This document shows, piece after piece, positions 18,001-24,000 of a stretch of 64,000 nucleotides of DNA. Each line of letters starts with the position of its first letter. Positions within the stretch are counted from its first letter, which is position 1. The stretch lies in NCBI RefSeq assembly GCF_048403405.1, contig NZ_CP183135.1. One strand, given 5' to 3'. This stretch comes from Escherichia coli (GTDB lineage: Bacteria > Pseudomonadota > Gammaproteobacteria > Enterobacterales > Enterobacteriaceae). Position numbers: made by a program.

Positions 18001-21000
18001 ACGTGACCGGACTGCCACTTCTGAACGGGAAACCGCACTGCCGGAGAGTGTGCTGCGTGAATCACAACGGGAACGGGAAGCGGTCCGGGAGGTTGCCCGG
18101 GAAAATCTGCTGCAGAGGCTTCTGCAGCAGATGGAGCGGGATATGGTTCGTGACCTGCAGAAAGAGAAAACCCTGGGCGGAGACTGATACAGGAAGACAA
18201 ACACTGATGACAACGGATAACACGAACACGATACGTAACGATTCACTGGCTGCACGGACCGATACCTGGTTGCAGTCATTTCTGGTCTGGTCACCCGGAC
18301 AGCGGGATATCATCAAAACGGTGGCACTGGTGCTGATGGTACTGGACCACATCAATCTGATATTCCAGCTGAAGCAGGAATGGATGTTTCTGGTCGGGCG
18401 TGGGGCCTTTCCGCTTTTTGCCCTGGTGTGGGGGCTGAATCTGTCCCGTCATGCGCATATCCGGCAACCGGCCATTAACCGGCTGTGGGGATGGGGAATT
18501 ATTGCCCAGTTCGCATATTATCTGGCAGGCTTTCCCTGGTATGAGGGGAATATCCTGTTTGCCTTTGCAGTGGTGGCACAGGTGCTGACGTGGTGTGAAA
18601 CGCGCAGTGGGTGGCGTACAGCAGCGGCCATTCTCCTGATGGCCCTGTGGGGGCCTTTGTCCGGCACCAGTTACGGCATTGCCGGGCTGCTGATGCTGGC
18701 AGTCAGCCACCGGCTGTACCGGGCGGAAGACAGAGCGGAACGTCTGGCGCTGGTCGCCTGCCTGCTGGCTGTTATTCCGGCGCTTAACCTTGCCACCAGT
18801 GATGCAGCGGCGGTGGCTGGTCTTGTGATGACGGTGCTGACCGTTGGTCTGGTGTCGTGTGCAGGAAAATCATTACCCCGTTTCTGGCCCGGAGACTTTT
18901 TCCCGACGTTCTATGCCTGTCATCTGGCTGTGCTGGGCGTTCTGGCGCTGTGACGGGTGTGGTATCTTTGGCCGCAAGAGGATGATTCGTCAGAGGCAGA
19001 ACACAGCATGACAGAGCAGAAGCGACCGGTACTGACACTGAAGCGGAAGACAGAGGGAACAGCGCCTGTCCGCAGCCGGAAAACCATCATCAATGTCACC
19101 ACGCCACCAAAATGGAAGGTGAAAAAGCAGAAACTGGCCGAGAAAGCGGCCCGGGAAGCAGAGCTGGCGGCAAAAAAAGCGCAGGCCAGACAGGCGCTGT
19201 CCATTTATCTGAACCTGCCCTCACTGGATGAGGCCGTGAATACCCTGAAGCCCTGGTGGCCGGGATTATTTGACGGTGACACGCCCCGGCTTCTGGCCTG
19301 CGGTATCCGGGACGTGTTACTGGAAGACGTGGCGCAGCGGAATATCCCGCTCTCGCATAAAAAACTGCGCAGGGCGCTGAAGGCCATCACCCGTTCAGAA
19401 AGCTATCTGTGTGCCATGAAAGCCGGTGCCTGCCGGTATGACACGGAAGGGTATGTGACGGAGCATATTTCTCAGGAGGAGGAAACGTATGCGGCAGAGC
19501 GTCTGGATAAAATCCGCCGCCAGAACCGGATAAAGGCAGAACTTCAGGCCGTGCTTGATGAGAAATAAAAAAAAGCCTCCCTCAGAGAGAGGAGGCAGGG
19601 AAATAAGGCTTAAAAGGAAATAACTTCCGTACCCGAAAGGAAGCCAATTCAGTAGATTATTTAACACCATAATACTGACGGGTTAAAGAGGAGTGATAAA
19701 GATGAATGGATTCAGAAACAGTTCACGGAACGGTCAGGTCTGGTGCTGGCAGCGTGCCGGAAGCCGGGCCGTTATTCTGGAGGTCAGTGGACGCTGGATG
19801 GAAGCGGCAGAAGGATGGCGACGGGCTGCCTGTGTTGCGCCCCGGACAGACTGGCAGCAGTTTGCCCGAAAAAGGGCTGAACACTGCCACCGGCGCTGCC
19901 GGGGAAGGGTGTAACGAAAAAAGCAGCCTTCATTACTCCAGGGATTCAGAAGGCTGAATAATGCATGAGATTTGCTTTTTTTAATATCCGGTCGGGCAGT
20001 ATGACCGGACAGTTCTGAGTAGCACAGAGTTTTTTCCGTATTAAGTCGTGATTTTATATTTTGTGATTAATTTCACAAAATAAGGTGTTATTCAGTGTGT
20101 GCTGCAATATTCAGGATGCCTGAAATACAGGTGCTATTTATCTGATATGGAGAATAACATGAGGAAATATATTCCACTGGTATTATTTATCTTTTCATGG
20201 GTAATGACTCCAACTTATTGATAGTGTTTTATGTTCAGATAATGCCCGATGACTTTGTCATGCAGCTCCACCGATTTTGAGAACGACAGCGACTTCCGTC
20301 CCAGTGTAACCGGCTCATTTAAACCGTCTGGTCTGTTTCCTCCGGCTCTACAAAAATAATGTCCATCATTTTTAATGGACACTATCGTATGAAACACCGG
20401 ACCTGGATCACTGAAGCTTTACGTCTTCACTTTGAAGAACATTTACCCCGGGTTGTGGCCGGGCGTCGCCTGGGTGTACCAAAATCAACAGTTTGTAGTA
20501 TGTTCGTGCGCTTTCGGAGAGCTGGCCTTTCGTGGCCTTTGCCCGCAGGCATGTCGGAGCAGGAACTTGATGCCTGCCTTTACGGACAATTTTCCACGGT
20601 ACCAGTCGTACGTCCTGAAAGCACCGTTATATCCGAAGCCCCCGTGGTAAAAAAACGTCCCCGGCGGCCCAACTTCCCTTATGAGTTTAAAATCGCCTTA
20701 GTGGAGCAGTCACTGCAGCCCGGAGCCTGTGTGGCGCAGATCGCCCGGGAAAACGGAATCAACGATAACCTGCTCTTCAACTGGCGCCATCAATACCGGA
20801 AAGGTGGCCTGCTGCCTTCCGGAAAAAATATGCCGGCACTGCTTCCCGTGACGTTAACGCCGGAGCCGGATAATAAAATCCCGGCCCCCGCACAGGAACC
20901 AGAGCAGATAAATACACCGTCCGACAGTCTGTGTTGTGAGCTGGTTCTGCCGGCCGGAACTCTCAGGCTTAAAGGTAAACTGACGCCGGCGTTATTACAG

Positions 21001-24000
21001 ACACTTATCCGCGAAATAAAAGGGAGCAGCCACTGATGATATCTCTCCCTGCAGGTTCGCGTATCTGGCTGGTTGCAGGTATCACCGATATGCGAAATGG
21101 CTTTAACGGCCTGGCATCAAAAGTTCAGAACGTCCTGAAGGATGACCCGTTCTCCGGACACCTGTTCATCTTCCGCGGACGCCGGGGTGACCAGATAAAA
21201 GTGTTGTGGGCTGACAGTGACGGACTGTGCCTCTTCACCAAACGCCTGGAGCGGGGCCGCTTCGTCTGGCCAGTCACCCGTGACGGCAAGGTGCACCTTA
21301 CTCCGGCTCAGTTATCCATGCTTCTTGAAGGTATCAACTGGAAGCACCCGAAACGAACGGAACGCGCTGGAATCCGCATATAACCCGTTGTAAAGTGAGG
21401 ATATGGACACCTCACTTGCTCATGAGAACGCCCGCCTGCGGGCACTGTTGCAGACGCAACAGGACACCATCCGCCAGATGGCTGAATACAACCGCCTGCT
21501 CTCACAGCGGGTGGCGGCTTATGCTTCCGAAATCAACCGGCTGAAGGCGCTGGTTGCGAAACTGCAACGTATGCAGTTCGGTAAAAGCTCAGAAAAACTT
21601 CGTGCAAAAACCGAACGGCAGATACAGGAAGCACAGGAGCGAATCAGCGCACTTCAGGAAGAAATGGCGGAAACGCTGGGTGAGCAATATGACCCGGTAC
21701 TGCCATCCGCCCTGCGCCAGTCTTCAGCCCGTAAACCGTTACCGGCCTCACTTCCCCGTGAAAACCGGGTTATCCGGCCGGAAGAGGAATGCTGTCCTGC
21801 CTGTGGTGGTGAACTCAGTTCTCTGGGATGTGATGTGTCAGAGCAACTGGAGCTTATCAGCAGCGCCTTTAAGGTTATCGAAACACAACGTCCGAAACAG
21901 GCCTGTTGCCGGTGCGACCATATCGTGCAGGCACCAGTACCTTCAAAACCCATTGCACGCAGTTATGCCGGAGCGGGGCTTCTGGCCCATGTTGTCACCG
22001 GGAAATATGCAGACCATCTGCCGTTATACCGCCAGTCAGAAATATACCGTCGTCAGGGAGTGGAGCTGAGCCGTGCCACACTGGGGCGCTGGACAGGTGC
22101 TGTTGCTGAACTGCTGGAGCCGCTGTATGACGTCCTGCGCCAGTATGTGCTGATGCCCGGTAAAGTCCATGCTGATGATATCCCCGTCCCGGTCCAGGAG
22201 CCGGGCAGCGGTAAAACCCGGACAGCCCGGCTGTGGGTCTACGTCCGTGATGACCGTAACGCCGGTTCACAGATGCCCCCGGCGGTCTGGTTCGCGTACA
22301 GTCCGGACCGGAAAGGTATCCATCCACAAAATTACCTGGCCGGTTACAGCGGTGTGCTTCAGGCCGATGCTTACGGTGGTTACCGGGCGTTATACGAATC
22401 CGGCAGAATAACGGAAGCCGCGTGTATGGCTCATGCCCGGAGAAAAATCCACGATGTGCATGCAAGAGCGCCCACCTACATCACCACGGAAGCCCTGCAG
22501 CGTATCGGTGAACTGTATGCCATCGAGGCAGAGGTCCGGGGCTGTTCAGCAGAACAGCGTCTGGCGGCAAGAAAAGCCAGAGCCGCGCCACTGATGCAGT
22601 CACTGTATGACTGGATACAGCAACAGATGAAAACACTGTCGCGTCACTCAGATACGGCAAAAGCGTTCGCATACCTGCTGAAACAGTGGGATGCACTGAA
22701 CGTGTACTGCAGTAATGGCTGGGTGGAAATCGACAACAACATCGCAGAGAACGCCTTACGGGGAGTGGCCGTAGGCCGGAAAAACTGGATGTTCGCGGGT
22801 TCCGACAGCGGTGGTGAACATGCGGCGGTGTTGTACTCGCTGATCGGCACATGCCGTCTGAACAATGTGGAGCCAGAAAAGTGGCTGCGTTACGTCATTG
22901 AACATATCCAGGACTGGCCGGCAAACCGGGTACGCGATCTGTTGCCCTGGAAAGTTGATCTGAGCTCTCAGTAAATATCAATACGGTTCTGATGAGTCGC
23001 TTACGTCCCAGTCGTCCCAGCCGTGCCAGGTGCTGCCACAGATTCAGGTTATGCCGCTCAATTCGCTGCGTATATCGCTTGCTGATTACGTGCAGCTTTC
23101 CCTTCAGGCGGGATTCATACAGCGGCCAGCCATCCGTCATCCATATCACCACGTCAAAGGGTGACAGCAGGCTCATAAGACGCCCCAGCGTCGCCATAGT
23201 GCGTTCACCGAATACGTGCGCAACAACCGTCTTCCGGAGACTGTCATACGCGTAAAACAGCCAGCGCTGGCGCGATTTAGCCCCGACATAGCCCCACTGT
23301 TCGTCCATTTCCGCGCAGACGATGACGTCACTGCCCGGCTGTATGCGCGAGGTTACCGACTGCGGCCTGAGTTTTTTAAGTGACGTAAAATCGTGTTGAG
23401 GCCAACGCCCATAATGCGGGCTGTTGCCCGGCATCCAACGCCATTCATGGCCATATCAATGATTTTCTGGTGCGTACCGGGTTGAGAAGCGGTGTAAGTG
23501 AACTGCAGTTGCCATGTTTTACGGCAGTGAGAGCAGAGATAGCGCTGATGTCCGGCGGTGCTTTTGCCGTTACGCACCACCCCGTCAGTAGCTGAACAGG
23601 AGGGACAGCTGATAGAAACAGAAGCCACTGGAGCACCTCAAAAACACCATCATACACTAAATCAGTAAGTTGGCAGCATCACCGGGTGGCCTGATTTAGG
23701 TGGTGGATCAGCAGTATCACAGTTTGCAATGATGGCCAGAAAATTTGGTAAACAACTTATTGTCGCTGTAAGTGAAAAGGATGCCATCAAATTAAAAGAC
23801 AATTTTGATATTATTGGGATGTTGTCATATGGTAAAGAAAATTTTATTGCCATGAGTCATACGAAAAGCGAGTTAACTGGAGGGAAACGTCGGTACCGGA
23901 TTAAAAATTGATATAAATAAAAAGCATACTTATTGGCTGGAGTTTCGGTAGTAAAAAGCGGGAAATGAAGGTAATAGTCAGCAACAGGGAATGTGGTATT

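Follow-up and report, generated by a model that had tools for sequence, protein, structure and literature searches.

ISCro1 nested in a 777-bp allele of IS1 on IncF plasmids of Escherichia coli: the extra 9 nucleotides belong to the target

Structure of the nested insertion

We analyzed a 64,000-nucleotide (nt) stretch of Escherichia coli DNA (hereafter the window; RefSeq assembly GCF_048403405.1, contig NZ_CP183135.1), in which one insertion sequence (IS) lies inside another: a 2,699-bp IS66-family element, ISCro1, occupies positions 20306–23004 within the 3′ end of the insB gene of an IS1. The host IS1, delimited by reading the sequence and aligning it to an intact copy, spans 20200–23683, so that each of the bounds given in the first-pass annotation (20199–23682) was one base off; G20199 falls within the adjoining thermonuclease gene, whose homology with an intact locus extends up to and including that base. 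The left junction reads ...GACTTCC GTCCCAGT and passes into the start of the element, GTAACCGGCTCATT (GTAACCGGCTCATTT), and on the right the end of the element, GAGTCGCTTAC, is followed by GTCCCAGT and then by CGTCCCAGCCGTGCC; a perfect 8-bp direct repeat thus stands on either side of ISCro1. Taking out ISCro1 together with one copy of the repeat, which joins 20200–20305 to 23013–23683, leaves an IS1 of 777 bp and not the canonical 768 bp. Its full-length alignment with the intact 768-bp copy at 33569–34336 contains a single 9-nt gap and five substitutions, and translation of the coding (minus) strand places the extra 9 nt, CGTCCCAGT, in frame near the C-terminus of InsB, where it adds the residues LGR. 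In all this the sequence, alignment and translation bear out the first-pass annotation, which had proposed the nesting, the GTCCCAGT repeats and the surplus of 9 nt with its LGR, and had left two explanations standing: an IS1 variant that already carried a 9-nt duplication, or element ends displaced by one base, with CGTCCCAG as the actual duplication.

The extra 9 nt preceded the ISCro1 insertion

The comparisons settle on the former: the 9 surplus nt are an in-frame length polymorphism that the IS1 already had, and not an anomaly of IS66-family transposition. Both copies of the repeat flanking ISCro1 end in a variant-specific T, and GTCCCAGT is absent from the canonical IS1, which has GTCCCAGC. 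Since a target-site duplication copies the sequence of its target, this T and the CGTCCCAG that follows it (i.e., the extra unit) must have been present before the insertion. Hence, the duplication is indeed a clean one of 8 bp, but of the variant IS1 and not of the canonical sequence.

The uninterrupted 777-bp allele is itself widely represented, including at the very same site. A 62-nt reconstruction of the empty junction has uninterrupted matches in 176 complete E. coli records (at 100% in 14 of them) and in at least 107 PLSDB plasmids, including those of Klebsiella pneumoniae and Escherichia albertii; a scan of the species-representative genome collection with an empty-site 26-mer (N at the odd base) returned no match. 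When the left flank together with the 9 nt was used as the query, 31 of these E. coli records matched over 274/274 nt at 99.6% or more, and all of these display the order finO/truncated thermonuclease gene, IS1, hok-repA, i.e., the same plasmid site (site A). Five fetched uninterrupted examples (pREF1-18-1, FDAARGOS_497 unnamed1, pMR0617ndm, pIP1206 and pKP12226) have the flanks of the window on both sides of the IS1, namely GTATTATTTATCTTTTCATG and GGGTGGCCTGATTTAGGTGG. The IS1 between sopA and iutA (site B; pSF-468-1, pS19_651-a, pKBSW16i-A, pA409_p1 and p657a) likewise contains these 9 nt, linked to the same G substitution close by; in RefSeq this IS1 is annotated as an intact transposase with programmed frameshifting, and the site is also found with a canonical 768-bp IS1.

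At the level of the repeat, the canonical IS1 has two imperfect 9-nt units, CCGTCCCAG CCGTGCCAG, which code for LAR-LGR on the opposite strand, whereas the variant has three, CCGTCCCAG TCGTCCCAG CCGTGCCAG, coding for LAR-LGR-LGR; Tandem Repeats Finder (TRF) reports a period of 9 with 3.0 copies in an uninterrupted variant. The same 9 nt recurs in 11/11 variant copies examined, which fits a single origin. In other respects the host IS1 resembles the 768-bp IS1A/IS1B type, with 99.3% identity to the intact copy of the window outside the indel: the terminal inverted repeats of ~23 bp (GGTAATGAC.../GGTGATGCTGCC...) are identical at both ends to those of the intact copy, the A6C motif TTAAAAAAC lies at the same position, the -1 frameshift arrangement of insA and insB′ is kept, and the Pfam InsA and DDE_Tnp_IS1 domains are detected. 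It departs from that type in its length, in the third repeat unit (LGR), in being split by ISCro1 and in lacking a 9-bp target duplication. The 777-bp IS1 is an allele of IS1 and not a separate element. It is an ordinary allele on many E. coli plasmids, for which RefSeq protein accessions already exist; papers retrieved by a search for an IS1 of “777 bp” most likely mean 768 bp plus the 9-bp target duplication and not the LGR allele.

Other variation accompanies these uninterrupted copies. Many of those at site A measure 773 bp (e.g., in pREF1-18-1, pMR0617ndm, pIP1206 and pKP12226) on account of a 4-nt deletion (ACTG) about 424 nt into the IS1, which frameshifts insB; the copy in pREF1-18-1 is marked “frameshifted” in RefSeq. 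At site B, the last 12 nt of the IS1 (GGCAGCATCACC) are tandemly repeated directly outside its left inverted-repeat (IRL) end in pSF-468-1, pS19_651-a, pA409_p1 and p657a, pKBSW16i-A is without the extra 12-nt copy, and in pYLPK12, where the IS1 is canonical, the right junction differs slightly.

Identity and ends of ISCro1

ISCro1, an IS66-family element named for Citrobacter rodentium, is common in E. coli. A megablast search of complete E. coli genomes matched the element over at least 80% of its length in 2,180 records, and many of these matches are annotated as “IS66-like element ISCro1 family transposase”. The copy in the window is 100% identical to the RefSeq-annotated ISCro1 in pMB5823_1, and it agrees with other copies that RefSeq labels ISCro1 (99.9% identity) in its length of 2,699 bp, its ends GTAACCGG...CGCTTAC, its 8-bp target duplication and its tnpA-tnpB-tnpC gene order typical of IS66, with adjacent or overlapping open reading frames (ORFs). 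All three of these ORFs are intact. The termini are imperfect inverted repeats that begin with GTAA (IRL GTAACCGGCTCATTT..., right inverted repeat, IRR, GTAAGCGACTCATCA...) and match each other at 18 of their first 24 nt.

The ends were fixed by comparison with eight full-length E. coli copies from unrelated chromosomal and plasmid contexts: a gene for a GNAT acetyltransferase, prophage tail genes, the vicinity of an integrase gene, papC, the vicinity of yagA on a plasmid, and three others. All eight start with GTAACCGGCTC and finish with GAGTCGCTTAC, each within a different perfect 8-bp duplication; counting the window, a perfect 8/8 flanking repeat is seen in 9/9 copies examined, so that the repeat around the window copy is no coincidence. 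Such concordance among independent copies implies that the ends of the window copy at 20306 and 23004 are not shifted. Against each of these copies, the window copy shows 3–4 nt differences in 2,699 nt. Three substitutions set it apart from all eight, at 21764, 22333 and 22993: two of them give T121N and H311Y in TnpC, and the third, C→T at 22993, falls in the right inverted repeat and improves its match to the left repeat at that position. Because this T is private to the window copy (C in the others), a scan of the species-representative genome collection with the last 24 nt of the window ISCro1 found no match. Among the matches listed on top for the nested structure, those other than the pMB5823_1-like plasmids score one mismatch lower (6645 vs 6650 bits).

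Flanks of the IS1 copies and consequences of the insertion

The left flank of the host IS1 is the beginning of a gene for a thermonuclease-family protein, which the IS1 cuts after 13 codons: positions 19900–20199 align at 98.3% to pZ1811-1, ending inside an annotated thermonuclease coding sequence, and the matches to “thermonuclease family protein” end at query position 101. The right flank (23684–23710) does not continue this gene as arranged in a pO157-type plasmid. The host IS1 is also without the 9-bp target-site duplication that is commonest for IS1, being flanked by TCTTTTCATG and GGGTGGCCTG. The discontinuous flanks and the missing duplication together place it at a deletion or recombination boundary, where the absence of such a duplication is expected and has no bearing on membership of the IS1 family.

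The intact reference IS1 of the window likewise lies without a target duplication, between GCGTCTAAG and TATTGCAGC, and is probably at a rearrangement boundary too. In pCUVET19-970.4, the left junction of the host IS1 recurs; the IS1 there is a canonical IS1B, and its right flank, unlike that in the window, is a GmrSD gene.

As for the host IS1 itself, the insertion of ISCro1 divides insB so that its final 26 codons are cut off, and the truncated reading frame continues into ISCro1 (ORF 22895–23434). With insB so divided, the host IS1 is unable to make the full-length InsAB′ transposase; both of its terminal repeats are kept.

Table 1. Features of the nested insertion and of the reference IS1 in the window
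Feature	Coordinates	Strand	Basis
Thermonuclease-family gene, 5′ remnant (ATG + 13 codons), cut by IS1	20159..20199	+	Alignment; homologue matches
IS1 right-end segment: IRR (GGTAATGACTCC...) and 3′ end of insB	20200..20305	-	Intact IS1 (from 33569) identical over its first 97 nt but for one substitution, then extra 9 nt
Extra 9 nt, CGTCCCAGT, third unit of the 9-nt tandem repeat (placement ambiguous within the repeat)	20297..20305		Gap in global alignment; TRF; translation
Left target-site duplication copy of ISCro1, GTCCCAGT	20298..20305		Sequence; comparison with other copies
ISCro1 (IS66 family), 2,699 bp	20306..23004	+	Identity to annotated copies
tnpA, 225 aa, IS66 accessory protein	20359..21036	+	Pfam HTH_Tnp_1 (E=8.6e-15); protein identical to that of other copies
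tnpB, 115 aa, IS66 Orf2-like accessory protein	21036..21383	+	Pfam TnpB_IS66 (E=4.7e-40)
tnpC, 523 aa, IS66 DDE transposase	21403..22974	+	Pfam DDE_Tnp_IS66 (E=4.8e-103), zf-IS66, LZ_Tnp_IS66, DDE_Tnp_IS66_C
Right target-site duplication copy of ISCro1, GTCCCAGT	23005..23012		Sequence; comparison with other copies
Remainder of IS1: most of insB′, A6C frameshift site, insA (23353-23628), IRL (...GGCAGCATCACC)	23013..23683	-	Alignment; Pfam Zn_ribbon_InsA, HTH_Tnp_IS1, DDE_Tnp_IS1; motif TTAAAAAAC
Intact canonical 768-bp IS1, reference copy	33569..34336	-	Sequence; alignment

Alternative explanations for the 9 nt

Three other accounts of the 9 nt can be set against a pre-existing IS1 allele. That the ends of ISCro1 are one base off, with CGTCCCAG of the canonical IS1 as the true duplication, is suggested by the presence of CGTCCCAG directly to the left of T20305 and again at 23013–23020; however, such a shift would not account for the GTCCCAGT that separates the element from CGTCCCAG in the right flank, the GTAA...TTAC ends with 8-bp duplications are fixed by the eight independent copies, and empty sites that have the 9 nt are known, all of which render this second proposal of the first-pass annotation exceedingly improbable. 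An assembly or sequencing artefact, for which the repetitive nature of the site is the one argument, has a practically negligible chance of being the cause, given that hundreds of complete genomes and plasmids, each assembled independently, show the identical sequence, with and without ISCro1.

More thought is due to the idea that the 9 nt is the footprint of the imprecise excision of an earlier element (8 duplicated bp and one further base, or 9 duplicated bp with a single change), into which ISCro1 then inserted, the footprint having spread among IS1 copies by recombination. In size the extra sequence resembles the usual target duplication (8–9 bp), a single odd base sits at the junction of two units, and there are signs of recombination in the IS1 copies at these sites, where identical left junctions occur with differing right flanks. 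Yet the junction T matches neither terminus of ISCro1 (G and C), the 9/9 ISCro1 insertions examined are clean, and the canonical IS1 carries a two-unit 9-nt repeat at this exact spot, so that slippage is sufficient. In E. coli, moreover, bacterial DDE elements rarely leave excision footprints, and we regard an origin of this kind as improbable. Two further ideas were discarded: deamination at a Dcm site as the source of the C→T at the junction, as no CCWGG motif overlaps that base; and two tandem ISCro1 insertions followed by recombination, which by the logic of the junctions could only have shortened the duplication, never added 9 nt.

Some observations weigh against the reading that we favor, namely an IS1 allele that gained its third unit before ISCro1 arrived. 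The 777-bp IS1 is flanked by a 9-bp target duplication neither at site A (finO-repA) nor at site B (sopA-iutA), and consequently there is no evidence of this allele transposing; it was probably passed among IS1 copies by homologous recombination. The birth of the 9 nt through slippage and point mutation is inferred, not observed, and the new unit differs by one base from its neighbor; when the intermediate with a perfect duplication (C for T) was sought in 5,426 E. coli genomes, only the canonical IS1 was recovered, as two joined pieces. Formally, too, precise excision could have produced the uninterrupted copies at site A, which would then be revertants and not ancestors; the deduced target sequence would be unaffected.

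Order of events and implications

We propose the following order of events, to which we assign a probability of roughly 0.9: an IS1 would first have come to lie on an IncF (incompatibility group F) plasmid backbone, between finO with the first 13 thermonuclease codons and the hok/srnB-repA region; this IS1 would have been, or become, the 777-bp allele by gaining a third 9-nt unit; and ISCro1 would then have transposed into that allele in the standard manner of the IS66 family, with a staggered cut and fill-in duplicating GTCCCAGT. The 9 nt itself would most likely derive from a replication-slippage duplication plus one synonymous transition. Thereafter, the nested structure would have been handed down both vertically and by conjugation with its plasmid lineage.

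IS1::ISCro1 occurs in identical form and between the same flanks in 316 complete E. coli records (312 genomes) and in 241 plasmids; in pMB5823_1, which was fetched for its annotation, it lies between traX-finO and hok-repA of the IncF backbone. The nested structure reads as one insertion event that was inherited by a plasmid lineage. A literature search for ISCro1 with IS1 or IncF yielded no description of the IS1::ISCro1 nested structure; a paper on sequence type 131 (ST131; PMC8764528) reports ISCro1 and IS1 adjoining each other upstream of afaA, a different locus.

What we have here is an ordinary case of one known IS inserted into another, and hundreds of RefSeq plasmids already carry annotations of the nested structure. 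It parallels nested IS on IncF resistance and virulence plasmids in general, where likewise one IS inactivates another and the product is inherited as a lineage marker, and nothing notable differs. There is but an outside chance that the LGR insertion is non-neutral, i.e., that it defines an IS1 allele with altered transposase activity or a rare excision footprint in an enterobacterial IS, the odd junction base being the sole pointer in that direction. Both elements are known, and the biological importance of the finding is very small. Its use is twofold: IS1::ISCro1 between finO and repA, a single event, can mark an IncF sub-lineage (316 complete E. coli records vs 31 with the uninterrupted allele there), and annotation pipelines should count the 9-nt difference neither as an error nor as aberrant IS66 transposition.

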